Positions 493 through 22,130 of a stretch of DNA of 32,000 bases are shown here, piece by piece. Source of the DNA: Candidatus Heimdallarchaeota archaeon (GTDB lineage: Archaea > Asgardarchaeota > Heimdallarchaeia > Heimdallarchaeales > Kariarchaeaceae). The stretch lies in contig JASBSB010000001.1 of NCBI GenBank assembly GCA_030149205.1, positions 270,001-302,000 on the forward strand. The letters are read 5' to 3'. Numbering within the stretch: position 1 is the stretch's first letter; each line of letters opens with the position of its first letter. The position numbers and the translations under genes are program-made. Under the pieces are notes generated by a model, which ran no database searches, was not told the origin of the DNA, and was given only the letters and a program-made list of their open reading frames with translations.

Positions 493-1203
493 TTATTCTT
501 CACCCAATCTTTCTTTCAAGTTTCTAATTATATCATCATTTCTAACCATTTTTTCCATGAAACTTTGTGACAACTCTCCCTGAATTCTCACGTTATCTTC
601 TCTCTCAGTTTTAAGCGTTTCTTCTAATTCAGAAATTTTCTGTTTTAGTCTCTTTACATCATCCGAGGATCCAACCTGTTGAGAAATTTGCTTCAGAATT
701 GTGTTGATATCTGTACCTTCTGGAAATTTAGCCTGAGCAATCAACTCTAAACTCTTCTTTTCTTGTTGGAAATGGGACTCCATTAACGATCTCTCATCTT
801 TTAATCTCGACTCCAAATCACGGCGAACCGTGGCTTCATTTGCCAATGATTTTTTGAGTTCTCGCACTTCATCTGACAAGGCTTGAACATTTTCTTGCTC
901 AATGGTTAGTGCTCGTCGAGCGCTATCTAATCGACTTTTCAGGTCTTCAATTGAGGCTGCTAAACTGTTATATATCCCAACATAAGAATTTATGTAATCC
1001 CTGATAAGCGGATGTAAAATTTCCCAATACTCATCAATTAAAGCCTCAAGTTCCTTATGTTCAACAGTTACACTGCCTTCTTTGTAAATTGCACGCTTTA
1101 AGGACTCAATATTAGTGTAAGGCTCATGTTCAGGGTAGAAATCAAATAACGATTTATTCTTTTTAGAGCGAAACATTACAAACTGAATTGTGTTTAATAA
1201 CAT
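493..1203 (-). CDS. Hypothetical coiled-coil protein
   Basis: 236-aa ORF with long heptad-like E/K/R/L-rich helices (LAASIEDLKSRLDSARRALTIEQENVQALSDEVRELKKSL; VKRLKQKISELEETLK); no TM segment. Confidence 0.8.
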   Translation of the reverse strand: MLLNTIQFVMFRSKKNKSLFDFYPEHEPYTNIESLKRAIYKEGSVTVEHKELEALIDEYWEILHPLIRDYINSYVGIYNSLAASIEDLKSRLDSARRALTIEQENVQALSDEVRELKKSLANEATVRRDLESRLKDERSLMESHFQQEKKSLELIAQAKFPEGTDINTILKQISQQVGSSDDVKRLKQKISELEETLKTEREDNVRIQGELSQSFMEKMVRNDDIIRNLKERLGEE

Positions 1204-9528: not shown

Positions 9529-11163
9529 CTATATTTGAACAGAAGCCTGCCCATCAGCTCTCGGGTCAGAACCTGCAGTAAGTATATCAGAGTCTGGGAA
9601 ATAATTAATTATTTGACCTCGTCCAAAGATAGATCGACCATATCCATCCATTGGTCTTACTGGATGCCCATAAGAAGCTATTTGACTCATCAAACTTACG
9701 TTCATCGAACTTTCAAGTGCAACCACACCATTTTGTGTACCATCCATTATGCAGAATCTATAGTGATCCAAGGCTTCCTGAGGGTTCATCTTAAAATCAA
9801 TCATATTTACTAACACCTGAGTGTGACCTTGAGGTTGCATGAATCCTCCCATAACACCAAATGATGAAAATAATTCTTTGTTTGATGTAGCCATCCCTGG
9901 AATGATTGTGTGATAAGGTCGCTTGTTTGGCGCCAGATGGTTGGGGTGTGTTGGATCCATACTAAAGTTATGCCCCCTATTTTGGAGGGTAAAACCTGTA
10001 CCTTTAGGAACCAGCCCTGTACCAAAACCCATGTAATTTGAGTTGATAAATGAACATGCATTCCTATCTTCATCAACAACAGAGAAATAAACAGTATCTG
10101 AGCTGGTGAAAGGAGACCCTTTTTCAATGTTCATTGTAGCTCTGTTTAAGTCAATCATTTCTCTTCTACTCGATGCGTATTTCTTTGATAACATTTTTTC
10201 AATTGGAACATCTTGTTTGCTTGGATCAGCGACATACCAACGTGTATCCGCAAATGCCAATCTCATTGCTTCAATAAGTATATGATAATATTTAGACTCA
10301 GATTCCCTGTAGAGAGATTCCAAATCAAATTCTTCTAAAATATTCAATGCCATTAAAGCAGTTATGCCCTGTCCATTTGGTGGAATCTCATACACCTCTA
10401 CTCCTTTATAATTTGTTGAGATTGGTTTGTCAAAAGTCGAATGGTGAGCTTTAAGGTCATCTAGATTCAGTACTCCACCTCTGGAACTGATAAGTGAGAC
10501 TATGGCATCCGCGATTTTACCTTCGTAGAATCCTGTCTTACCCTCCTCTGTAAGTACCTTAAAGGTGTTAGCCAGAGTTTTATTTCTCATTCTTTGTCCA
10601 GGCTTAGGTGCGTGACCGTTTAATAACATCTCAGCTCCATTTGGGCCACTTAGTAGAAGTTTCTCACTTCGACTCCAGTAATAAGAGGTTATTGGTGATA
10701 CGGAAAATCCACTTTCAGCCAATGTAATGGCTGGTTTAAGTATCTCCTTCATATCAAGTGTACCCCATCTATCTACACTATCCACCCAACCAGCAGCCGC
10801 ACCAGGAACAGTTATTGTATGAATGCTATGCGGATCAAGCTTTGTAATCCCGTTGTCTCTCAGGTAATCCAATGATAAATCACTTGGTGCTCTACCACTA
10901 CCATTTAATCCTTCAACCACTTTTCTTTTGGAATCGTAGTAGAGGACGAAGCAATCACCCCCGATTCCAGTGGATGTAGGTTCGACCACATTTAAAACAG
11001 CTGCCGTCGCAACGGCTGCATCAACAGCATTTCCTCCCTTTTCTAATATACTTAAGCCAGCTGCTGTAGCCAACGGTTGAGAACTGGCAACTATACCCTT
11101 AGTAGAAAAGACAGGGGACCTTCTAGATTTGAACTCCATAACCATGCATTCACAAAGGAGCAT
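9529..11163 (-). CDS. ggt: Gamma-glutamyltransferase family (Ntn hydrolase, YwrD-like subgroup)
   Basis: GGNAVDAAVATAAVLNVVEPTSTGIGGD, EAMRLAFAD, nucleophile Thr in SDTVYFSVVD, RPYHTIIP, GVMGGFMQPQGH, GSDPRADG; likely start ATG 11139. Confidence 0.95.
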   Translation of the reverse strand: MLLCECMVMEFKSRRSPVFSTKGIVASSQPLATAAGLSILEKGGNAVDAAVATAAVLNVVEPTSTGIGGDCFVLYYDSKRKVVEGLNGSGRAPSDLSLDYLRDNGITKLDPHSIHTITVPGAAAGWVDSVDRWGTLDMKEILKPAITLAESGFSVSPITSYYWSRSEKLLLSGPNGAEMLLNGHAPKPGQRMRNKTLANTFKVLTEEGKTGFYEGKIADAIVSLISSRGGVLNLDDLKAHHSTFDKPISTNYKGVEVYEIPPNGQGITALMALNILEEFDLESLYRESESKYYHILIEAMRLAFADTRWYVADPSKQDVPIEKMLSKKYASSRREMIDLNRATMNIEKGSPFTSSDTVYFSVVDEDRNACSFINSNYMGFGTGLVPKGTGFTLQNRGHNFSMDPTHPNHLAPNKRPYHTIIPGMATSNKELFSSFGVMGGFMQPQGHTQVLVNMIDFKMNPQEALDHYRFCIMDGTQNGVVALESSMNVSLMSQIASYGHPVRPMDGYGRSIFGRGQIINYFPDSDILTAGSDPRADGQASVQI

Positions 11164-11262
11164 TAATTTGTGTTGGTTGAGGAAATAAACTAAACCATTG
11201 TTTCATTTCGACTAACATTTGAGAGAAAGTGTTTAATTCATGGGAAACTAATTACTTTTGTA

Positions 11263-11853
11263 ATGAGTTCTTCTGAAATAAGGTCATTATTGAGACAACT
11301 GGACAAAGAATACCAGAACGACCCAGAAATTACAATTGCAAAAACAATTGAAAATATCAGGAATTATGACAAAGAACAAGATTTTGATGGATCCTTCCAG
11401 TTGGCAATGAAACTGGGAGAATGGTATGAACAACTTGATAATGTGGAGAGAGCAAACTCAGCAAAAGCACTTGCACTGGTTCGAGCATCATTTCTGAATG
11501 ATCCGCTTAAAGTGAAAATGATCGAAAAAAATCTCGATCTCACTAGCATGAAAATTAGATTTGCACATTCAATAAACATGGGAAAGGGAGACACTGGTAG
11601 AAAGCACTACTACTTAGTAAATTTAGAACTCCAAACTCTGTGGGGAGACTTTATAAAAGTTAATCCGATCCCTTTGATTGATTTTAACGATGAAAATGAG
11701 GTTCAAGAAATTTTGGAAGATTATTTCCCATATGGTGTGTATCATGTCCATATGATAGAAAGAAATACAAATCAACAACGAAGGGTTGACATACCTGTTG
11801 GTAAGTTTGAGACATTAGAGATTGTGGAAACGGTTTTCAACCTCGAAAGTTAA
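11263..11853 (+). CDS. Hypothetical protein: helical (TPR-like) N-half, beta-rich C-half
   Basis: 196-aa ORF; helix-turn-helix pattern FQLAMKLGEWYEQLDNVERANSAKALA; no recognisable family. Confidence 0.75.
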   Translation: MSSSEIRSLLRQLDKEYQNDPEITIAKTIENIRNYDKEQDFDGSFQLAMKLGEWYEQLDNVERANSAKALALVRASFLNDPLKVKMIEKNLDLTSMKIRFAHSINMGKGDTGRKHYYLVNLELQTLWGDFIKVNPIPLIDFNDENEVQEILEDYFPYGVYHVHMIERNTNQQRRVDIPVGKFETLEIVETVFNLES

Positions 11854-11895
11854 TGTTCCTCAGTTAGTTAATATCTATGGAAAATCCGATAAAGC

Positions 11896-11903
11896 TTTTA
11901 ATA
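11896..11903 (+). promoter_or_regulatory. Putative BRE/TATA for the 11927-16243 gene run
   Basis: GATAAAGC followed by TTTTAATA ending 23 bp before ATG 11927. Confidence 0.4.
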
Positions 11904-11926
11904 AAATTGCGACAAAATAAAACCTG

Positions 11927-12229
11927 ATGAATCAAGATAATTTTTTGAGCAATTTGCGGTTAAATATCTTAGAGCTCTTCCAACCTAGCGCTGCAAGATT
12001 AAACAGAAAATCCTTTAGTCTCCCCGATATTAGCGCTAAATTGAAAGCCATATATATTTTAAGCTCAACCCAAATTAGCTTGAAAACAATCAAAACTCAA
12101 CTTGGTGTATTAGAGGAGAAAGATTTGATCAAACATTTTGAAATGGATGGTGTTCTAATGTGGGGGATGACTGATGAAGGAGAAAAAGTCCTCAAGGAAA
12201 TTCATGAGGGTACTAAAGAAGGAATTTGA
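11927..12229 (+). CDS. Small winged-helix protein
   Basis: LNILELF..FSLPDISAKL..ISLKTIKTQLGVLEEKDLI..WGMTDEGEKVL fits the wHTH pattern (recognition helix, wing, LT..G-type end). Confidence 0.75.
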   Translation: MNQDNFLSNLRLNILELFQPSAARLNRKSFSLPDISAKLKAIYILSSTQISLKTIKTQLGVLEEKDLIKHFEMDGVLMWGMTDEGEKVLKEIHEGTKEGI

Positions 12230-12255
12230 AAAGATAAAAGAATATTTCATTCAAT

Positions 12256-13926
12256 TTGATAAATAAATATGCAGAACTATTAAATTCTATTAGTCAAAGC
12301 TTAATTTACATGAGCTTTGGAGAAAAAACTCCGGGGAAGTTGATATGGGGTACTTCTAATTATCGTATTCAGCTTCATTTAGATGAATTGATATTTAGCA
12401 ATGAATCATCTGGTAAACTCTCACTTTATGAGAGAAGATGGATAAAAGGAGAAGAAGAGTTTACCTCATTGGAAGAGTTAGTTTCTGGGCTTAGAGCGAT
12501 GTGGGAAGCCTCGTTAAGGCAGGGTGTAATACAAGATGCTAGGTTAGCAAGATGGCTTGAGGAGTACCTTGCTGAATTAGGTGTTAAAGTAAATTATCTA
12601 AATGTGCTTGCTGCGATCAAAGGAGATTCAGCTGGAAAGTTCAAACACGTCACCCCTCAGGAGATTTTAAATACATTAGGAACTGAAAAGAAGTTAGAGA
12701 AGGAAGAGATTGAACAAATCCTCCCAGTTTCTCCGGAAATAACCTCAACTGGGGTTAAAATGGATGTTGAGAGTGAAAAAGTCTCACCAGTAAAGGACGA
12801 AGTCTTTGCTACTTTAACTGAGAAACATAGAACCGAACGACCTGAAACCATAAAAAGCATGATCAAGTTTGTTGGGAATGATGGTTCTGATAAACAAATT
12901 AACCAAGAAGGAACGCTTGCTTATAAACTCTCAAGCGATAAGATCAAGTATATTTCTAAATTTATAAATAACACAGGAGAACCCATGAAGGAATTGGTTC
13001 TAGAAGATTCTCTCCCCTTTGATTTAGCACTGGTTCAAACTTCCTCAACCTCAAACGCAACCAAAAATGATCAAAGGAAAGATAAAGAGGCCTTAAACGT
13101 TTCATGGAGAATTGAAGAACTTAAACCTGGAGAAAGTGTAGAAATAACCTACCATTTACAATTACGACTCAGAAGGATGATCATTGCCAAACTGAAAGAT
13201 ACGATTATAGTTCTTCAGACCTTTGATAATATAATCACACAAGATGGAGAACCTTCAGTTCTTACGGAATTTACAAATAACTTTGATTCAGATTTAGAGG
13301 ACTTAACAATAGTAGACCAACTTCCAAAGAACTATTCAATTGAAAGTTCAAATCCTGAGTTAAAGCCGCCTCTTGGTCTCCTTAACACAACAGAGGAATT
13401 TCAAGAGGTTACTTGGACTTTTACAGACCTGAAACCAGGAGGTAAATTGGAAATAAAATATTTTCTGAGAGAAAAAAATTTTGTTGAAAGAGAAATCAGT
13501 CAAGTCAAGTTAGACGAAGATGTGTCAATTGATATTGTGAAGCTGGTTAAAAAATTGAAATATCAATCTGGAATTGGTATAATTATAGGGGTTCGAACAT
13601 CGCATGCAATTGAGGATCAAATCAGATTAAAACTAAAATTCCCTATGAGTGTCTCTGTTCAACTAATTGATCAGACAAATGGCGACCTAGTACTTGAAGA
13701 TGGTGAAAACTGTAAAATTGTAGGTTGGGAATTGGATGTAAATTCACGACGTGATAACTTTGCTTTCATTAGGGTAAAGAGCGAAACTTCTCTTGAAGAA
13801 AGTGGAATATCTTGTGAAGTCCACGGAAAAACATATGATAAACATACGTTAATCCAAACACAGGTTAAGGAGGAGGGACTTGTATTACCTGTGGAGTATC
13901 AAAAAAGTGTTGATGTGAAAGCATAA
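12256..13926 (+). CDS. Hypothetical cytoplasmic protein with three tandem beta-sandwich (DUF11/mu-homology-like) domains
   Basis: Repeated pattern N..(E/D)L...D.LP......V.W....LKPG....I.Y twice (about 12910-13470) and a third degenerate copy (IRLKLKFP...G....IVGWEL); no signal peptide. TTG start 12256, alternative ATG 12310. Confidence 0.75.
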   Translation: MINKYAELLNSISQSLIYMSFGEKTPGKLIWGTSNYRIQLHLDELIFSNESSGKLSLYERRWIKGEEEFTSLEELVSGLRAMWEASLRQGVIQDARLARWLEEYLAELGVKVNYLNVLAAIKGDSAGKFKHVTPQEILNTLGTEKKLEKEEIEQILPVSPEITSTGVKMDVESEKVSPVKDEVFATLTEKHRTERPETIKSMIKFVGNDGSDKQINQEGTLAYKLSSDKIKYISKFINNTGEPMKELVLEDSLPFDLALVQTSSTSNATKNDQRKDKEALNVSWRIEELKPGESVEITYHLQLRLRRMIIAKLKDTIIVLQTFDNIITQDGEPSVLTEFTNNFDSDLEDLTIVDQLPKNYSIESSNPELKPPLGLLNTTEEFQEVTWTFTDLKPGGKLEIKYFLREKNFVEREISQVKLDEDVSIDIVKLVKKLKYQSGIGIIIGVRTSHAIEDQIRLKLKFPMSVSVQLIDQTNGDLVLEDGENCKIVGWELDVNSRRDNFAFIRVKSETSLEESGISCEVHGKTYDKHTLIQTQVKEEGLVLPVEYQKSVDVKA

Positions 13927-13988
13927 TCTCTTCTGCTACAAAATAACTAGGCTTATATTCAATAATACTAATATTATAATTAGAAACA

Positions 13989-14672
13989 ATGGTTAAAGGT
14001 TCTAGTGTTGACAAGAATGAGGGTAAATCTGACCTCATCCCAGAGAAAAAATCTGTTGCCTTCATACATATCAGGGTTGACCCTGAATTCAAAAGAGACC
14101 TCCTTGAAAAGGTTGAGGAAGAAGATACAAATCTTACGGCTTATGTGGTAAACACTCTTTCTGCTGACATTTATAAAAAGGAGATAGAAGAAGAGGATGA
14201 GGAGGATCTATTGAGAGAAGATATACTTGGAGCACTGGAGAACCTAGAAAGAAGAGTAGAAATTCGACTTTCCACACTTCAAGATACTTTTAATTCATTG
14301 ATAGGTAAATTAATTGCACTTGACACCAGAAAATCTTCCACTAGAAGAGGAAAAAGTAGAAAACAACAGGCATTTGTTGAGGAAGACGATGAACTCTCAG
14401 ATGTATTGGATAAGGATGAGGTCCTCAAGATAAGACCAGAAGAGATGGTTTACTCAAGGGTAAAACGTTTTGTAGAAACTAAGGGTGTGGCTGAGGTTCC
14501 TGATTTTCAAGAAATTATTTTGCACTTAGAAACAGATGCACAGATAAAGGAGTTTTTCCAACGACAAGAAGAGACTTTCCCCGGTTGGAAAGAGTCAATG
14601 GTTACAGATGCAATTGAAGAGGCTATTGAAGAACTGGGTATTTCTCTTAAAGGAAGAGGTGGTGGAGCATAG
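13989..14672 (+). CDS. Ribbon-helix-helix domain protein with acidic stretch, coiled coil and C-terminal helical domain
   Basis: AFIHIRVDPEFKRDLLEKVEEEDTNLTAYVVNTL matches the RHH strand-helix-helix pattern; ILGALENLERRVEIRLSTLQDTFNSLIGKL is a coiled coil. Confidence 0.75.
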   Translation: MVKGSSVDKNEGKSDLIPEKKSVAFIHIRVDPEFKRDLLEKVEEEDTNLTAYVVNTLSADIYKKEIEEEDEEDLLREDILGALENLERRVEIRLSTLQDTFNSLIGKLIALDTRKSSTRRGKSRKQQAFVEEDDELSDVLDKDEVLKIRPEEMVYSRVKRFVETKGVAEVPDFQEIILHLETDAQIKEFFQRQEETFPGWKESMVTDAIEEAIEELGISLKGRGGGA

Positions 14673-14686
14673 CTAGACGACCATTT

Positions 14687-16243
14687 GTGAGGCGAAAATC
14701 TAATGAAAAGCGAAATCAAGAGGCAATAGACCTTTTTAATCTGTTCAATCGGCTTCAACCAGTTACCAGGAACAAGTATTTAACTGTGATTCATTCTTTT
14801 GGAGAGTTTTTAATGGTTCATAAAAAATCATTTTGGGATGTTGCTCCATTAGACGTAAAAAAGTTCTTATTGGAAGGAGGTACACCACAATCTAAAAGCA
14901 TCCTAAAAACCTTCTATAGAGTGCTCATAGACACAGGAGAATTTCAGGGTGATAACCCTATAACTCTTCTAAATGAGATCGAAGAACAGGAGAAGGAGGC
15001 GGGAATTGAGATTGAAGCTCCAAAAACATCGGCAGAAACTGTTTTGGAAACATTAAGAGATGAGAATCTAAGTTTTAGTGAAGAGTTTGTCCCTGCAGAA
15101 AACCGGGTGGTGGAAAAGAAAAAGCCCCCAAAACCAATTATGACACTTACTGACCTAGAACATTTACTTAAAAGAACTCATCATATAAGGGAAAGAGCAA
15201 TTCTAGAAATTTTATTTGCCACAGGTGCAAAACTCAAAGAGATAATAGAGTTAAACGTCTCAGATATTGATTTGGAGGGTAAAAAAATAATGTTTTTTGA
15301 AACTGATACTCAGATCTCAAGAGTTATTGCGATGCCAAAACGAGCTTTACCATTCTTAAGACTATACGAACGATGGCGCTTAAGGCAACTTTCACCATCA
15401 AACGCTTATTTTATTACCAAAAAGACAAAGGAGAGAATGAGACCCACAACAGTTTCCTCATGGCTAGCTAGACTTCAACGAGATAAAGAACCTGGTCAGA
15501 GATGGACGATTGGGGATTTTCGAAAACGGGCAATTCTTCAACATTATTGGTTGACAAAGGATTTAGCTGCAGTCAGTAGATTTGCAGGATATAAAAGACC
15601 GGAGGCAGGGTTACGCGTTGTTAATCAAATTCTTGAAGATAGAGGTATAGAAAATCTAAAAGATTTGACTGAACTACCAGAATTTGATGAACTTCAACGA
15701 GACAAGAAAAAATTGACACCAAGACTCAATGATCAATCAACTACAATCACCATAAGTTTAGATCCTGATGAGCTGGAAATGATTCGAAAATCTGGTTTAA
15801 CACCAACTCAAGCAGTTAAAACTGTCTTTTCACTTAAAGACCTATACTCTTCAGTTGCTCCTGCTGCCGCAGCAGCTCCGGTAGCAAGCTCACCTCTTGC
15901 CAAGGCCATGTCCGTAAGTGCTGCACCTCCACCATCCAGACCCAGTGGGGGAAGTTCTGGCCCTAGATCAGAAGGGAAGTCAACGTTTGTTCCTGGGCCT
16001 GTTGGCGGTGGACCACCTTCGGGACCATCTTCAGGAGGCGGAGGTGGTTTAGGATTCTTAAGTGAGCTCAAATCTAAACTGCAGGAAAGAAATAAAGCAA
16101 AGCAAGAAGGAAAAATACCCTCTGAAATAACAATTGGACCTCAAGATCACTTTGCCAATGTTCAGATTTTAGACTCAAAATCGAAGGATGATTCCGATTC
16201 TAAATCTGAAGAAGAAGATGAGAAAGAACAAAAGGAAGACTAA
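14687..16243 (+). CDS. Catalytically inactive XerC/D-like tyrosine recombinase fused to an RHH-like segment, a Pro/Gly-rich region and an acidic tail
   Basis: SAM-like core-binding domain (TRNKY...F..FL...NPI); catalytic-domain framework ERAILEILFATGAKLKEI...DID, GDFRKRAI...DLAAVSRFAGY; catalytic residues replaced (see findings). GTG start 14 bp after the upstream stop. Confidence 0.85.
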   Translation: MRRKSNEKRNQEAIDLFNLFNRLQPVTRNKYLTVIHSFGEFLMVHKKSFWDVAPLDVKKFLLEGGTPQSKSILKTFYRVLIDTGEFQGDNPITLLNEIEEQEKEAGIEIEAPKTSAETVLETLRDENLSFSEEFVPAENRVVEKKKPPKPIMTLTDLEHLLKRTHHIRERAILEILFATGAKLKEIIELNVSDIDLEGKKIMFFETDTQISRVIAMPKRALPFLRLYERWRLRQLSPSNAYFITKKTKERMRPTTVSSWLARLQRDKEPGQRWTIGDFRKRAILQHYWLTKDLAAVSRFAGYKRPEAGLRVVNQILEDRGIENLKDLTELPEFDELQRDKKKLTPRLNDQSTTITISLDPDELEMIRKSGLTPTQAVKTVFSLKDLYSSVAPAAAAAPVASSPLAKAMSVSAAPPPSRPSGGSSGPRSEGKSTFVPGPVGGGPPSGPSSGGGGGLGFLSELKSKLQERNKAKQEGKIPSEITIGPQDHFANVQILDSKSKDDSDSKSEEEDEKEQKED

Positions 16244-16252
16244 TTGATTATA

Positions 16253-16266
16253 AAGTTTTTTTATTT
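16253..16266 (+). terminator. Possible oligo-T archaeal terminator after the recombinase-like gene
   Basis: T-rich run (GTTTTTTTATTT) about 10 nt after stop 16243. Confidence 0.3.
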
Positions 16267-16358
16267 GAGAAAAACCTGAATCTTACGAACTCATTTAACA
16301 TTTTACGAAATTTTTTTTGATTATTTTGAGAAATCTAAGAAAGAGTTGAGTCAAAACG

Positions 16359-16368
16359 TTTTTATTAA
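16359..16368 (+). promoter_or_regulatory. Putative TATA box of the tandem Lrp-like regulator
   Basis: TTTTTATTAA ending 26 bp before ATG 16395. Confidence 0.4.
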
Positions 16369-16394
16369 GCAAAGTTATAATTAACATGTAAACT

Positions 16395-17510
16395 ATGCAA
16401 ATGTACGAAGATTGGAATAAAAATGATGATCGAGGAAATGTACTGAGCCAGAATGAAGCCAGAGTTCTGCATTCATTAATTAAGTGGCCAGACTTAACAG
16501 ATCAAGCAGTTCATTCCCAAATAGGAATGAAAAAATCAACTTTCTCCTCAATTAAAACACGACTAAAAGAGAATGGGTTCTACAAGCGATATTATGTCCC
16601 TAATTTTCCTAAAATTGGTCTTGAGCTATTGGTATCAATGCATGGAAACCTTAACAGGTTTACAACACTAGAGGAGAGAATGAGAGTTGCAAAAGACCTT
16701 TTGGAAAGTTTCGTTGAGGATTTTCACATCGCGTCGGAATCAAATAAAGCTTTTAATCTGTCTGCAAGTCAAAATCTGACAGAATATTCAAAAAACCAAG
16801 AAAAATTCATTCAGTTATACTCAGACAATAAATTTCTAGATAAAAATGGAATGAAAGTTGTCTATTTCCCCTTTGAAATAAGCAGAATTAGAGCATTTAT
16901 GGATTATGAGAGTTTGGTTGCGAAAACCTTTGGATTTGCCTCTGATCCATATGACAAAAGAAAGACAATCCCCTCAGGAAAAGTCAAGCCAACTAAATTA
17001 ACTAAGGCGGAAAAGAAAGTACTTGCTGGATTAGTACAGTTTCCAGAAGAATCTGACACTTTAATTGCTGAGCAAGTTGGTGTTTCAAGAAATACAGTTG
17101 CTAATGCAAAAAGAAAATTTTTAAATCAGAATATTTGTTTTCCTAGGGCTGTTCCAGACCTACAGAAGCTTGGTATGAAGATATTAGTTTTCTCTTACAG
17201 AAAATTTAACCCACGAACTACAATGAAACAAAGAGAAGAGGCTGCAGAGATGGTAAGAAACCTTTTATCTCCATTTTTCTATGTATCCAAAAACTTGGAT
17301 GGATTCTTAATTTCCGCACATAGATCATTTGAGGAGTACAACACTGCGCATGATGAAATTATGAGATATTATCTTAAACATGATTACATTATCGATGAGC
17401 CAGTTTCATACACAATGACCATAAACAACATTCACTTCATTAAGGAATATGAATTTTTACCTTTAACCTTGAAAACGCTTGGATTTACAAAAGCACTCAA
17501 TCAAAGTTAA
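16395..17510 (+). CDS. Tandem-duplicated Lrp/AsnC-like transcriptional regulator
   Basis: Two similar halves: LSQNEARVLHSLIKWPDLTDQAVHSQIGMKKSTFSSIKTRL...VPNFPKIGLELL and LTKAEKKVLAGLVQFPEESDTLIAEQVGVSRNTVANAKRKF...VPDLQKLGMKIL; HTH followed by the Lrp-type linker. Confidence 0.8.
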   Translation: MQMYEDWNKNDDRGNVLSQNEARVLHSLIKWPDLTDQAVHSQIGMKKSTFSSIKTRLKENGFYKRYYVPNFPKIGLELLVSMHGNLNRFTTLEERMRVAKDLLESFVEDFHIASESNKAFNLSASQNLTEYSKNQEKFIQLYSDNKFLDKNGMKVVYFPFEISRIRAFMDYESLVAKTFGFASDPYDKRKTIPSGKVKPTKLTKAEKKVLAGLVQFPEESDTLIAEQVGVSRNTVANAKRKFLNQNICFPRAVPDLQKLGMKILVFSYRKFNPRTTMKQREEAAEMVRNLLSPFFYVSKNLDGFLISAHRSFEEYNTAHDEIMRYYLKHDYIIDEPVSYTMTINNIHFIKEYEFLPLTLKTLGFTKALNQS

Positions 17511-17539
17511 GTTATCCTAATTCACCCCATAATCTAAAT

Positions 17540-19324
17540 TTATTGCCCCTGTCGTTTGAACCATGATTCTAACTTTGAATGAGATATCCGAATAATCGTT
17601 GGTCTACCATGAGCACATGTCCAAGGAGAATTGCACTTAAGCAAATTTGAAAGAATTTCAGCAACTTTTCGTTCACTTACAGGGTATCCAGACCTAACTG
17701 CTCCATGACAAGCCAATCGAGATACAACACGATATTCAATTGCATTAAACTTGGAAGAGATCTCAATATTCGTGTCTGCAGTTAGAAAATCGTTAATCAA
17801 TTTATGAAGACTATCTTTGTCAAGTCTTTGGTCATAATACACAGGAACTCCATGTATCAATATTGTTGAGGTTAAGTGCTGAATACTGTATTGAAATCCA
17901 AACTTTTGAAACGTGTCCTGAAGTTCAACTAAAAGATCTAGTTCTCCTGAATTGATTGATACGGAAACTGGTTTAAGGAAGGTCTGTGACATTACTAGAC
18001 TTTCTCGATGTTCTTGATATCTCTCAAATTTGACTCTCTCATCTGATGCATGAACATCCATCAACCAAAGTTCAGAGTCTTTTTCAATTAATGCGAATTT
18101 ATTAAAAATATGTCCTAAAACTCTAAAACCTCCTTGAACAAAAACCGCCCTTGTGTGGTTGACCGAATTATTTTGAGGTGTTATCTCCTCCAAAGAAGTT
18201 TGTACAAATGATTCTCCTGGAATAACCTCTTTTGTAGAAATTAAAGGTTCATAACCTTCTTGTAAATCTATTTCTGCATTAGAAACATTTGGAGCTTTCT
18301 TATGAGGTAACTGCTGTATTTCAGATTTTTCTACCAAGGTTTCTTGAACCAATGTAGAGATTTCGTGAAAAATTGGGTCATCCTCCCTAAATCTTACCTC
18401 CAGTTTCTGTGGATGTATATTATAGTCAACAAGATTGTAATCTCCCTTCAATGATAAGATTATTACAGGGTAATTGCTTTTCAATAATTGGGACCCATAA
18501 GCTCGTTCGATTTGAGTTACCAATTCTGTATTCCTAATCAATCTACCGTTTATACTTAGATACTGAAATTTTCGGTCTTTTCTTACAAGAATGGGTTTAG
18601 AGATATACCCTGTTATTTTCCAATATCCTACATTGCCTCTGATTGGTACTAATCCTGAGGTGATTTCTGGACCAAAAACATCAAACAATACTGCTAAAAG
18701 CTCTTTTCTGGTTGGACTCTCCAATACGCTTGACACTGTATTCCCCTTCCTTTCACCTACTGTGAAATGAATATCTGGGTAGGTTAAACAGAAATGTGTC
18801 ATCACAGTTAAGATGTGTCTCTTCTCTGTAGCAACTGATTTTAAAAATTTTCTCCTAGCAGGATAGTTATGAAATAATCCACTTATCTCAATTCTGGTTC
18901 CTTTGCTCATTCTTACCTGGTTTTGAGAGATAATTCGCAGATTTTCCATTATGAGCTCACTGCCAAATTCTTCTGACTCAACCTTTGATCGTATTTTGAC
19001 ACGAGAAACACTTCCAATCGATGAAAGTGCTTCTCCTCTAAACCCTAGGGTTGAAACATTATGAATATTATCTTGAGTAATTTTACTTGATGTATGAAGT
19101 TCAAATGCAAGTTTTAATTCTCCTGGCTGTATTCCTTCACCATTATCCTCAACAATCATCCTGTCAATGCCACCATTCTCCAGAATAACCGCAATTTTTG
19201 AAGCATGGGCATCAATGGAATTTTCAACCAACTCTTTTACCGCATCGGCTGGACGAGTAATTACCTCACCAGCTGCGATTTGCCTTATTATTTCTTCTGG
19301 AATTAGATGGATCTTATTTGCCAT
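17540..19324 (-). CDS. mutL: DNA mismatch repair protein MutL (endonuclease-motif type)
   Basis: IAAGEVITRP, VKELVENSIDA, DNGEGI, TLGFRGEALSSI, YNIHPQKLEVRF; CTD motifs DVHASDERVKFE, ACHGA, CAHGRP, WFKR. Start ATG 19324 has GGTGA 8 nt upstream and overlaps the mutS 3' end. Confidence 0.97.
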   Translation of the reverse strand: MANKIHLIPEEIIRQIAAGEVITRPADAVKELVENSIDAHASKIAVILENGGIDRMIVEDNGEGIQPGELKLAFELHTSSKITQDNIHNVSTLGFRGEALSSIGSVSRVKIRSKVESEEFGSELIMENLRIISQNQVRMSKGTRIEISGLFHNYPARRKFLKSVATEKRHILTVMTHFCLTYPDIHFTVGERKGNTVSSVLESPTRKELLAVLFDVFGPEITSGLVPIRGNVGYWKITGYISKPILVRKDRKFQYLSINGRLIRNTELVTQIERAYGSQLLKSNYPVIILSLKGDYNLVDYNIHPQKLEVRFREDDPIFHEISTLVQETLVEKSEIQQLPHKKAPNVSNAEIDLQEGYEPLISTKEVIPGESFVQTSLEEITPQNNSVNHTRAVFVQGGFRVLGHIFNKFALIEKDSELWLMDVHASDERVKFERYQEHRESLVMSQTFLKPVSVSINSGELDLLVELQDTFQKFGFQYSIQHLTSTILIHGVPVYYDQRLDKDSLHKLINDFLTADTNIEISSKFNAIEYRVVSRLACHGAVRSGYPVSERKVAEILSNLLKCNSPWTCAHGRPTIIRISHSKLESWFKRQGQ

Positions 19325-22067
19325 TGGGGGTTTCACCTAAGAGTGACTTCAGGTCATTTAATATTTCTAACGCTTTTAATGGTGTGATATTGTCAAGGGA
19401 AAGGTGAGATAGAGTTGCTAATATTTCGAGTTCTTCTGGTGACCTGAGTAATACATCCTTTTTATGTTTGGAAACTCTTTTCTTTTCAACTAAGGGTCGG
19501 CCTAGGCTTGATCCACCAAAAAAATCGACCAGGGATCCTTGTTTTTCCTGTTCTTCAGACACTCGTATGACCTGAGATGCAAATGATTCTGATTTTTCTG
19601 TTGGAATAACAGAGACTGATTGATTCTCCATTTGGTGCAAAAGAAATCTTGCACGAAGAATGATCTCTTTAGGTATTCCTGCTAGTTTTGCTACTTCTAC
19701 CCCAAAACTCTTGTCAGAGGAACCCTTAAAGAGAAGATGGTCAAAAATTGGTTTTTCACCATCAAAGTGTATTTGAAAATGAAAGTTCATACATCTATCT
19801 AAATACCCTTCCAAATCAGCTAATTGATGATAATGAGTGGCAATCATTGTGAGTGGACGGTTTTGGTGATTGTGGAGAAATTCTGCCAAAGACCATGCGA
19901 TTGCCAAACCATCATAAGTTGATGTCCCTCGTCCAATTTCGTCTGCAATTATTAGAGATTGTGAGGTACAATTATTCACCATATTAGCAACATCAAGCAT
20001 CTCAACAAGGAATGTGCTTTGCCCTGCGATTAGGTTATCTGAAGCTCCAATTCGGGTGAAAATTCTGTCAAATATTCCCAGTCGAGCCTTTTTAGCTGGA
20101 ACAAACATACCAATCTGAGACAATATACTGATCAATGCTAACATCCGGAGCAGTGAGCTCTTTCCACTAAAGTTTGGACCCGTGATAATGAGTAGTGTTT
20201 GCGATTTCTTATCCATGAAAATATCATTGGGTACATACCTCCCACCATCCAAAAAGGTCTCGATTATGGGATGCCTTCCCTGTTCAATATAAACTTCAGT
20301 CTTATTACTGAGCTCTGGTTTTACATAAGCATTTGTGAGTGAAATATATGAAAAAGTGGATAAAACGTCCAACTCTGATATTATCGATGACAATTCCTGT
20401 AGTCTGCTAACATGCTTTGACAAAGAGCTTAGAAGATTATTATAGAGCTCTTCCTCCAATTGGATTATTTCTATCTCAGCGTTTAATATATCATTTTCCC
20501 AATCCTTGAGTTCATCAGTAACAAATCTGACGGCATTTACCATTGCCTGTCTCCGGATATAGTTTGATGGAACATTATTTTCGTTCTTCCTTGTGACTTC
20601 GATATAGTAACCAAGTTGTCTGTTTTGTTTTATTTTTAAACTTGTAATTCCGGTTTGCTCTATTTGACTTTCCTTGTATCTCTCTATCCATTTTTCCCCT
20701 TCACTTAACACTTGAACCAGACTAGCTAATCGATCGTTAATGTTTTGATTAATGACTCTACCCTCTGATGGTGAACTTGCTGGATTATTCACGAGATATT
20801 TTTCTATCATCGTTTGAATATCTAAGCAAGTGTCAAACTTTGGCAGATAATTATCAAGACACTTGTAAGTTGTACTATGTGACTCCAGAATTTCTAATAA
20901 TTCTGGTGTCCGGCTCAAACTCATAGATAGTTGAATCAGCTCTTTGGGTTTAGCGATTCCTAAGGAGATACGTGTAGAAATCCTCTCTATATCTGCCATA
21001 TGAGTCAATAGATTACGGGTCTTATGTTGAATAATCTCTTCTTTGATAAAAAATTCCACCAATAAGTGTCTAGTCTCAATCTCTTTACTATTTAATAGTG
21101 GACTGTGAATCCATTTTCTGAGTCTACGCCCACCCATAGGAGTACAAGTTTTATCCAGCAAACCAACTAGTGTACCATATTCTGTTTTATCTTGATTATT
21201 TTCAAACAGCTCCAAACTTTTAATTGCTGTTCTGTTTAAATTCATGTGAACTTCAGGTTTAATCAGCTGAATTTTAGAGATATTAGATAACTCTCTCATC
21301 TGAGTCTCTTCAAGGTATCTGAGTAAGGCTCCTGAACTCCCAACTACCTCTGAATCAACCTTTATTCCATATCCTTCAAGTGATTTTACTTGAAAATGAG
21401 TTGTTAAAAGTTCATTTGCTTCAGTGTAATTAAACCAAAAGTCGGCACGAAGTGTTAATGTTTCATTTTCATCTAGTTTTCTACCCAACAACAACTTCAA
21501 GGAATTTTCAAGTGAATCTGGGACTAAGTACTCAACCGGTGAGTACCTATCAATGATAGTATGGAGATTTTCGAAATCATTTTCCTCCAGATTTTTAACC
21601 ATAAACTCCCCACACGATAAATCGGCTAAAGAAACACCAATTTCTTTTGTTGTCGAGTTCCAACTAAGTGAACAAATATAATTGTTTTTTCCCGAGGTCA
21701 GTAACTCCTCCTCCACAAGTGTACCACGTGTTACCACTCGAGTGATACCTCTTTTAACAACCCCCTTAACAGATTTCGGATCCTCTAGTTGGTCTGCAAT
21801 AGCAACTTTGTAGCCTTTGTTAACCAGTCTACCGATGTAAGAATCAACACTCCGAAAAGGTACCCCTGCAAGCGGATGATCACCATCCCCTAGAGACCTG
21901 GAGGTTAAGACAATATCTAACTCCTTTGAACCAACAACAGCATCCTCATAGAATAGTTCATAAAAATCCCCAACCCTGCAAAAGAGAATTACGTCTTCAC
22001 CTAGCTCTTTTTTCATCTGAACCCATTGCTTCATCATAGGTGTAGTTCCGATCTTATCGTAATCCAT
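19314..22067 (-). CDS. mutS: DNA mismatch repair protein MutS (MutS1, bacterial type) with C-terminal PIP box
   Basis: TPMMKQW, RVGDFYELFYEDA (mismatch-binding Phe-x-Glu), ITGPNFSGKSS, RIFTRIGASDNL, STFLVEM, DEIGRGTSTYDG, ATHYHQL, SFGVEVAKLAGIP; ATG 22067 preferred over TTG 22070. Confidence 0.97.
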   Translation of the reverse strand: MDYDKIGTTPMMKQWVQMKKELGEDVILFCRVGDFYELFYEDAVVGSKELDIVLTSRSLGDGDHPLAGVPFRSVDSYIGRLVNKGYKVAIADQLEDPKSVKGVVKRGITRVVTRGTLVEEELLTSGKNNYICSLSWNSTTKEIGVSLADLSCGEFMVKNLEENDFENLHTIIDRYSPVEYLVPDSLENSLKLLLGRKLDENETLTLRADFWFNYTEANELLTTHFQVKSLEGYGIKVDSEVVGSSGALLRYLEETQMRELSNISKIQLIKPEVHMNLNRTAIKSLELFENNQDKTEYGTLVGLLDKTCTPMGGRRLRKWIHSPLLNSKEIETRHLLVEFFIKEEIIQHKTRNLLTHMADIERISTRISLGIAKPKELIQLSMSLSRTPELLEILESHSTTYKCLDNYLPKFDTCLDIQTMIEKYLVNNPASSPSEGRVINQNINDRLASLVQVLSEGEKWIERYKESQIEQTGITSLKIKQNRQLGYYIEVTRKNENNVPSNYIRRQAMVNAVRFVTDELKDWENDILNAEIEIIQLEEELYNNLLSSLSKHVSRLQELSSIISELDVLSTFSYISLTNAYVKPELSNKTEVYIEQGRHPIIETFLDGGRYVPNDIFMDKKSQTLLIITGPNFSGKSSLLRMLALISILSQIGMFVPAKKARLGIFDRIFTRIGASDNLIAGQSTFLVEMLDVANMVNNCTSQSLIIADEIGRGTSTYDGLAIAWSLAEFLHNHQNRPLTMIATHYHQLADLEGYLDRCMNFHFQIHFDGEKPIFDHLLFKGSSDKSFGVEVAKLAGIPKEIILRARFLLHQMENQSVSVIPTEKSESFASQVIRVSEEQEKQGSLVDFFGGSSLGRPLVEKKRVSKHKKDVLLRSPEELEILATLSHLSLDNITPLKALEILNDLKSLLGETPNGK

Positions 22068-22130
22068 CAATAAATGAACTAGATTAGGGTGTATTTAATT
22101 AATTTCTATAGAAAATCGTTTTCTGTGAAC

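Follow-up and report, generated by a model that had tools for sequence, protein, structure and literature searches.

A gene pair of Heimdall-group archaea probably exapted from a mobile-element integrase module

The window analyzed here is a stretch of 32,000 nucleotides from a Candidatus Heimdallarchaeota archaeon (assembly GCA_030149205.1, contig JASBSB010000001.1, positions 270,001–302,000 of the forward strand), and its subject is a pair of adjacent genes, g4 and g5, that encode a ribbon-helix-helix (RHH)/coiled-coil protein and a protein with a tyrosine-recombinase fold. The pair lies in a cluster that a preliminary description of the same DNA had presented as a possible five-gene system for chromosome organization. 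The five co-oriented open reading frames (ORFs) of that description, separated by gaps of 73, 26, 62, and 14 bp, match the six-frame ORF list; a sixth co-oriented gene, g6, lies 3′ of g5 and was absent from it. The genes of the cluster are as follows.

11263–11853, plus strand: g1, 196 amino acids (aa)
11927–12229, plus strand: g2, 100 aa
12256–13926, plus strand: g3, 556 aa as listed
13989–14672, plus strand: g4, 227 aa
14687–16243, plus strand: g5 as the listed ORF with a GTG start, 518 aa; 524 aa when read from ATA 14669
16395–17510, plus strand: g6, 371 aa, the sixth co-oriented gene, 3′ of g5

The cluster is flanked by housekeeping genes, as had been described: ggt at 9529–11163 and mutL/mutS at 17540–22070, both on the minus strand. 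The other genes in the window are also housekeeping genes (LonB, malate and isocitrate dehydrogenases, Rpo5, iPGM, and a P-type ATPase), and no tRNA or Rfam family was detected in the 32-kb window. All six genes of the cluster are under purifying selection, with nonsynonymous divergence of 0.04–0.46 and a saturated synonymous divergence (pS) of 0.71–0.87 among three species of the genus.

The cluster was compared with 41 relatives in the same order, which include members of the window's own family (f1) and of two other families (f2 and f4), and with 400 Asgard genomes; all genomes compared were metagenome-assembled genomes (MAGs). An ortholog of g5 was found in 13 of the 41 relatives, with 9/11 genomes positive in f1, 3/3 in f4, and 0/25 in f2. 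Both f1 genomes that lack a match are incomplete, at 82% completeness in one case and a size of only 1.4 Mb in the other. Profile searches with g4 recovered exactly the same 13 of the 400 Asgard genomes, and the two genes are co-oriented, with g4 directly upstream of g5, at 11/11 loci where both are visible, in seven genera and two families. Neither gene has a second copy in this genome. In a set of 185,579 species genomes, the only carriers are MAGs labeled Heimdallarchaeota, Kariarchaeota, or "uncultured archaeon." An exhaustive search of 1.84 billion protein representatives revealed no further lineage with the pair, and only seven cluster representatives matched g4 at E < 1e-10. Protein identity across the two families is 33–56% for g4 and 34–65% for g5, and both genes are constrained, with nonsynonymous divergence (pN) of 0.15–0.28 versus a saturated pS of 0.73–0.86.

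The arrangement of the two genes suggests that they probably share one transcript, and their translation is probably coupled because the start of g5 either overlaps the stop codon of g4 or adjoins it (ATAG in the window's genus and TGATG in G007, another genome of the set). A TATA-like box 5′ of g4 and a T-run 3′ of g5 were read by eye; inspection by eye of the regions upstream of g4 across loci revealed no common motif. The start codon of g5 is unusual. No ATG, GTG, or TTG precedes the g5 N terminus, (I)ARRPFVRRKSNEKRN, in the three species of the genus (window 14651–14745, L022:5539-5605, and L023:5448-5514); the position where other genera have ATG is occupied by ATA, and the g5 frame opens just two codons upstream of this ATA in two of the species. 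In the first 20 codons of g5, the window and L022 differ by approximately 10 synonymous versus 3 nonsynonymous changes; the mostly synonymous differences indicate that this stretch is translated. The pattern implies either that g5 starts at ATA 14669, probably by termination-reinitiation, or that it is reached by a frameshift from g4. We prefer the former because no slippery heptamer for a −1 frameshift from g4 into g5 is visible. The g5 protein in the database (476 aa) begins at Met43 and is too short. With the longer N terminus, g5 comprises the following features.

From 14669, plus strand: conserved N-terminal peptide (I/M)ARRPFVRRK, beginning at ATA and overlapping the g4 stop as ATAG
14729–14971, plus strand: SAM-like core-binding N-domain, approximately residues 15–95 (PF02899, E 0.16, a weak match)
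15137–15691, plus strand: catalytic-domain fold without the catalytic set, approximately residues 151–335
15740–15856, plus strand: RHH-like segment, approximately residues 352–390, a TITISL strand followed by two helices with a G-L-T-P turn between them
15857–16240, plus strand: tail with an Ala/Pro/Gly/Ser-rich linker, a basic amphipathic helix, and an acidic end
16049–16111, plus strand: tail helix, approximately residues 455–475, motif x-[LIM]-x-E-L-[KQ]-x-x-L-x-x-R-[RN]

The recombinase fold is recognized by PF00589 at residues 156–303 (43.8 bits, gathering score 27.1, E 3.1e-11). Scores against the XerA equivalog NF040815 (56.3 bits, cut-off 220) and TIGR02225 (48.8 bits, cut-off 329.6) are far below the levels set for those families. 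The N-domain can be aligned to the N-domain of intact integrases, and PF02899 is matched by one g5 ortholog, P0017, with 23.2 bits (cut-off 22.3). Catalytic positions were read from alignments to XerA and XerD structures in the PDB, the genome's own XerA-like gene, 11 orthologs, and intact relatives, and these alignments bear out the earlier description of g5 as a dead recombinase: the fold is there, the catalytic set is not. The Arg I position is Lys here and K/R/Q among the orthologs; the β-hairpin Lys is missing in all 12 orthologs; the HxxR position reads GDFRK here and DFR[KR] in all orthologs, with the His lost; the His II position is Tyr here and Y/F/T/M among the orthologs; and the nucleophilic Tyr is replaced by Val here and by V/I/L in 12/12 orthologs. 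The genome's own XerA-like gene (contig C1, 190 bits) has R, K, HxxR, H, and Y all present. By alignment, g5 is predicted to be catalytically dead in every ortholog, yet it is constrained. Its orthologs are named XerC, XerD, or integrase in databases, and these labels are misleading. A precomputed PF22823 match on some of the orthologs was not reproduced.

Beyond the recombinase fold, g5 carries parts that the intact element integrases described below do not have. The RHH-like segment is strongly conserved in g5 and missing from those integrases; it has no Pfam match beyond noise, and profile-profile comparison revealed no similarity to the RHH of g4. The tail linker varies in length among orthologs, and the tail helix is more constant: its motif is matched in 10/12 orthologs, an eleventh (L022) has a close variant in the alignment, and a strict form of the motif occurs in this genome essentially in g5 only. 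No Pfam family, WH2 included, was matched by five orthologous tails at E values up to 10, although such profiles cover short motifs poorly. At the extreme C terminus, g5 orthologs of four genera (L025, L026, L028, and L029) carry a conserved acidic-hydrophobic motif, [DE][IL]PDF[DS]x; neither the window's genus nor f4 has this motif, which may serve as a second short motif for docking.

The g4 protein, encoded on the plus strand, is divided as follows, on the basis of an ortholog alignment and an AlphaFold2 (AF2) model.

g4, approximately residues 24–62, plus strand: N-terminal RHH, followed by an acidic stretch
g4, to approximately residue 120, plus strand: long coiled-coil helix
g4, residues 121–147, plus strand: disordered linker, basic/acidic
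g4, residues 150–216, plus strand: C-terminal domain of four helices

An alignment of 11 g4 orthologs has 32 invariant columns. The earlier reading of g4 as an RHH followed by a long helix is consistent with the AF2 model, which aligned (VIA-align) with MatP, MazE, KacA, TacA, and ParD at a modest Z of 5.6–6.7 (5.6–6.5 for the RHH antitoxins), and the sequence profile points weakly the same way: the NCBIfam family YlcI/YnfO_N was matched at E 8.5e-5 and 22.5 bits, under its 30-bit cut-off. Positions 20–70 gave weak matches to many proteins of 45–84 aa, and Pfam searches with the g4 sub-domains gave nothing beyond noise. P0038, another weak match, was rejected as a relative because it is an unrelated RHH protein adjoining a TrwC relaxase. 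The preliminary description had counted two RHH elements in the cluster; the one in g4 is weakly backed, and the second, within g5, is a sequence pattern only, for which Pfam is empty. A prediction of the interface between g4 and g5, made with g5 residues 1–400 and ortholog alignments, scored 0.30 (mark, 0.32).

Intact relatives of g4 and g5 occur together in what appears to be a mobile element. G009, a MAG of the same family, contains a repeat of approximately 1.8 kb in at least seven copies, which share 80–92% nucleotide identity and have unrelated flanks; several copies have stop codons. The copies encode an RHH/coiled-coil protein of approximately 200 aa with a g4-type C-terminal domain, followed by an integrase of approximately 290–300 aa that retains the complete catalytic set (R, K, HDFRR, GH, and Y). 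The g4 profile matched this accessory protein with an E value of approximately 2e-8, and the reciprocal match was g4 of family f4. The g5 protein matched the module integrases with E values from 5e-18 to 1e-10, compared with 9e-6 for the genome's own XerA, and the motifs DFR[KR]R, LQ(RD), and AG[HY] are common to g5 and the intact module integrases. A second assembly (L103:4001-5459) has the same overlapping pair of RHH protein and intact integrase, beside a DDE transposase. The earlier statement that the cluster has no mobile-element hallmark was wrong, because g5 matches PF00589 above the gathering score and its nearest relatives are integrases of a multi-copy element.

The repeats in G009 are found at L051–L057, L086, and L087 (contigs C576, C400, C69, C84, C317, C580, C417, C20, and C409). 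The 8-bp sequence TGCGTATT occurs near both boundaries of the element, the ends of which are only roughly defined. No relatives of the active module were found in IMG/VR, and a word-based search with one accessory protein returned only itself. The published aloposons (PMC8813620) were considered and are unrelated elements. The two-gene element of approximately 1.8 kb in Heimdall-group MAGs is apparently new to the literature.

The two genes of this element are homologous to g4 and g5, follow the same order with close spacing, and have the accessory C-terminal domain in common with g4. Unlike g4–g5, the element is multi-copy with unrelated flanks, and its integrase, unlike g5, is only approximately 290–300 aa long, has the full R-K-HxxR-H-Y set, and is without the RHH-like segment and tail. 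Capture of a whole module is the simplest history, because both genes are homologous, their order and spacing are the same, and the catalytic set is ancestral for the fold. We therefore favor, with a probability of roughly 0.6, a reading in which g4–g5 is an exapted, non-catalytic DNA-binding pair derived from a mobile-element module and is the sole conserved unit of the cluster. The observations behind it are the synteny and co-occurrence of the two genes, the lost catalytic residues, the purifying selection, and the homology to the intact module.

The history would have begun with a compact two-gene module, in which an RHH/coiled-coil accessory protein was followed by a tyrosine integrase, and which was fixed in the chromosome by an ancestor of two Heimdall-group families. 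The integrase would then have been stripped of its nucleophile and most of the catalytic set while keeping both DNA-clamping domains, and would later have acquired the RHH-like segment, the flexible Pro/Gly-rich linker, the conserved basic helix, and the acidic tail. In its present form, g5 would most likely act as a non-cutting clamp on specific DNA sites and may multimerize as recombinases do. Dimers of g4, joined by the coiled coil, would use the RHH to bind or bend the adjacent DNA and would assist g5 as g4 presumably assisted the ancestral integrase, and the g5 tail helix would recruit a partner. The output of the pair might be that of a regulator, an architectural protein, or a tether, all of which are candidates. 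The survival of intact relatives for g4 as well as g5 allows a direct comparison at every step of the domestication, and the g5 tail offers a defined peptide for a partner search in Asgard proteomes.

Several points weigh against this reading. DNA binding, complex formation, and a cellular role for g4–g5 are predicted from sequence; the RHH assignment of g4 is supported weakly, by low scores and a structural model; and residues 352–390 of g5 look like an RHH fold by sequence pattern. No candidate binding sites or repeats above chance were found around the locus. The intact module was found in two assemblies only, one of which is a fragmented MAG of 63% completeness, and sampling of the donor family is therefore thin. 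Finally, g1–g3 may have a loose functional tie to g4–g5, because they are located within approximately 20 kb of the pair in a few genomes (G006 and G007).

An alternative that starts from the same relatives is that g4–g5 works against mobile elements, either by occupying the attachment sites of related elements or by poisoning their active integrases, and in this way limits the approximately 1.8-kb family. Mobile-element enzymes are well known to give rise to dominant-negative or decoy derivatives, an active element in the same archaeal family supplies the closest relatives of g4 and g5, and many of the element copies in G009 carry stop codons. However, the domesticated pair coexists in G009 with at least seven copies of the element, which shows no sign of exclusion. 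The searched databases contain few instances of the element, and the retention of the pair across two families, together with its new domains, suggests a role beyond the sites of one element. We consider this function plausible but unlikely.

One possible output of an exapted pair is that g5 is a tether between DNA and a filament (or a membrane/ESCRT structure), in which the clamp, the RHH-like segment, and g4 would hold chromosomal sites while the linker and helix engage a cytoskeletal or division protein. The logic would be similar to that of ParR, an RHH protein with a C-terminal peptide that binds the actin-like ParM. The idea is a long shot; if true, archaea closely related to eukaryotes would have a lineage-specific adaptor for chromosome handling.

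The preliminary description proposed that g1–g5 form one structural chromosome-organization complex of DNA binders and scaffolds. Co-orientation and short gaps fit this proposal, as do the several genes that are probable DNA binders and the order g1, g3, g4, g5, which is kept in the two other species of the genus. A synteny check across related loci, which that description had itself named as a test, decided against it: gene order is lost beyond the genus except for g4–g5, and g1 and g3 flank the pair in the window's genus only. The behavior of each neighbor, as set out in the next paragraphs, leads to the same result.

For g1, no Pfam or NCBIfam match was found, and the label "TPR-like" (tetratricopeptide repeat) given to it earlier is without family backing; a search by Atlas features gave DUF5717 as the best candidate (0.85) and TPR clusters at 0.77–0.79, all under the accepted level. 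The gene occurs in 14 of the 41 relatives, usually beside g2 and on contigs other than those of g4–g5, and in other genera g1 and g2 are located on other contigs or 6–20 kb from the pair. They are neighbors in at least eight f1 genomes, mostly in divergent orientation (e.g., G004:C7:36851-37814 and G007:C216:52297-53219), an arrangement typical of a regulator and its target. The g2 protein is probably a winged-helix protein, in line with the winged helix-turn-helix proposed for it: its matches (HTH_45, FUR, RepL, DUF505, and Sso10a) are all to winged-helix families, but all are sub-threshold. Even within the window's genus g2 shifts, and in two genomes (G001 and G003) it lies downstream of g5, with g6 inverted.

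Orthologs of g3 align from Met19 only, which corresponds to ATG 12310, and this is probably the start; the gap between g2 and g3 would then be 80 bp. The protein has approximately three β-sandwiches after an α/β N-domain, as had been described, with a match to DUF11 (E 6.5e-7) and a model (pLDDT, the model's confidence score, 81.5) that is all-β over residues 180–520 (approximately 340 residues). Assignment of the last sandwich as a mu-homology domain was rejected because its Z scores (8.4–9.4) were no better than those of pilins and carbohydrate-binding modules (CBMs), as for a generic sandwich. The g3 gene is found in 39/41 genomes of the order, including 25/25 of f2, which has no g4–g5, and its neighbors elsewhere are metabolic genes (FAD oxidoreductase, PheRS, and an Alg9-like glycosyltransferase). 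No signal peptide was noted in g3, and this order-wide gene often has a paralog with only the N-domain in common. It is adjoined by g1 in the window's genus and in two f2 genomes; g1 lies directly upstream of g3 in the window's genus and in a genus of another family (G012:C39:6986-8879 and G032:C78:3560-5510), which hints at a separate g1–g3 functional pair.

The sixth gene, g6, encodes a double winged-helix (TrmB/MarR-like) protein (PF01978, E 1.9e-6). It is 87–90% identical across genera in which g5 is only approximately 54–66% identical to that of the window, has 3–4 paralogs in some genomes, and was not found in f2; g6 represents an unusually constrained, lineage-specific transcription-factor family. 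A further gene is linked to g4 in other genera:

493–1203, minus strand: coiled-coil gene, ortholog of the divergent g4 neighbor elsewhere (50% identity, E 1e-86), single copy

In four other genera of f1 (L024–L028), this divergent coiled-coil gene precedes g4. Here, the ortholog is 12.8 kb from g4, so that approximately 12 kb of housekeeping genes and g1–g3 lie between them in this genus. The protein is 227–236 aa in length, is 50% identical across genera, and has weak TSC22/leucine-zipper matches.

Thus, g1, g2, g3, and g6 are local-synteny neighbors and not parts of a system, and the stretch is probably a mosaic of independent units in which g4–g5 is the only conserved functional unit. A role in chromosome organization has no support, and the cluster has neither an NTPase nor repeated DNA sites. 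The earlier remark that no ATPase is present holds, in that Pfam and NCBIfam revealed no P-loop or actin-like ATPase among g1–g6; MutL and MutS, on the opposite strand, are the closest ATPases. Likewise, no NTPase partner of the ParABS/SegAB type was found among g1–g6, and a search of 11000–17600 for centromere-like repeated sites gave only short two-copy repeats at chance level. Taken together, the five-gene complex is very improbable. One part of the idea survives: g4 and g5 are co-inherited, probable DNA binders without catalytic residues, and therefore a non-enzymatic DNA-bound complex is plausible for these two, but not for five genes. The tempting but unsupported "new chromosome-organization system" is struck off, and the captured two-gene module takes its place as the sharper object.

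The least credible alternative, that g5 is a working recombinase with a non-canonical active site within an integrated mobile element, has the above-gathering PF00589 score and the XerC/XerD or integrase names of its orthologs in its favor, but the nucleophile position is V/I/L in 12/12 orthologs, Arg I is K/R/Q, the β-Lys and both His are lost, the invariant Tyr 227, 287, and 387 are structural positions of intact relatives too or lie within the RHH-like segment, and the locus is single copy in a syntenic housekeeping setting (ggt, Rpo5, and mutL) with no tRNA and no flanking repeats.

We found no published account of g4–g5, nor of any chromosomal case in archaea in which a partner was co-domesticated and a recruitment tail added, and known systems resemble the pair in parts. 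The accessory protein g4 is closest in layout to MatP, the organizer of the E. coli Ter macrodomain (PDB: 3VEA), in which an RHH is also followed by a coiled coil. The g4 model aligned best with MatP (Z 6.7, rmsd [root-mean-square deviation] 1.9 Å over 56 residues), but this Z score is within the range of unrelated helical proteins, there is no sequence similarity to g4, and the likeness is one of layout only; MatP is also without the C-terminal domain of g4 and without a recombinase partner. The g5 protein shares its two-domain fold with XerA and XerC/D (PDB: 4A8E, 1A0P, and 5HXY; best profile E 3.4e-15, best PDB match 8e-4) and differs from them in a 55-residue insert, the RHH-like segment, a 130-residue tail, and the loss of the catalytic set. 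By this comparison g5 is not a Xer ortholog, and by function it would group with exapted, inactive recombinases.

Two such recombinases have been described. MrpR/YopR, the SPbeta prophage's master repressor in Bacillus subtilis, has an inactive recombinase fold that binds repeated sites (Kohm et al. 2023, PMC10516654). As is predicted for g5, it is a tyrosine-recombinase fold without recombinase activity, and no sequence relationship between the two was seen or tested for; unlike g5, it is phage encoded, bacterial, and a single protein, and its binding to repeated sites contrasts with the g5 locus, where no repeats above chance were seen. TnsF of the Tn6022-like Tn7 transposons is a catalysis-dead tyrosine-recombinase derivative kept for site-specific DNA recognition, and, as for g5, the active ancestor of this dead derivative (Tsy) survives as a mobile element (Faure et al. 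2023, PMC10293859). TnsF differs in that it resides within a transposon, acts as the target selector for TnsABC, and has N-terminal zinc fingers (PMC10293859), whereas g5 is chromosomal, vertically inherited, and archaeal, with an RHH partner, a long tail, and no transposon genes nearby. As in these cases, g5 has kept the fold, lost catalysis, and been maintained by selection, here across two families. It is distinct from them as a chromosomal archaeal gene of two Heimdall-group families with a co-domesticated accessory gene, an RHH-like segment, and a motif-bearing tail.

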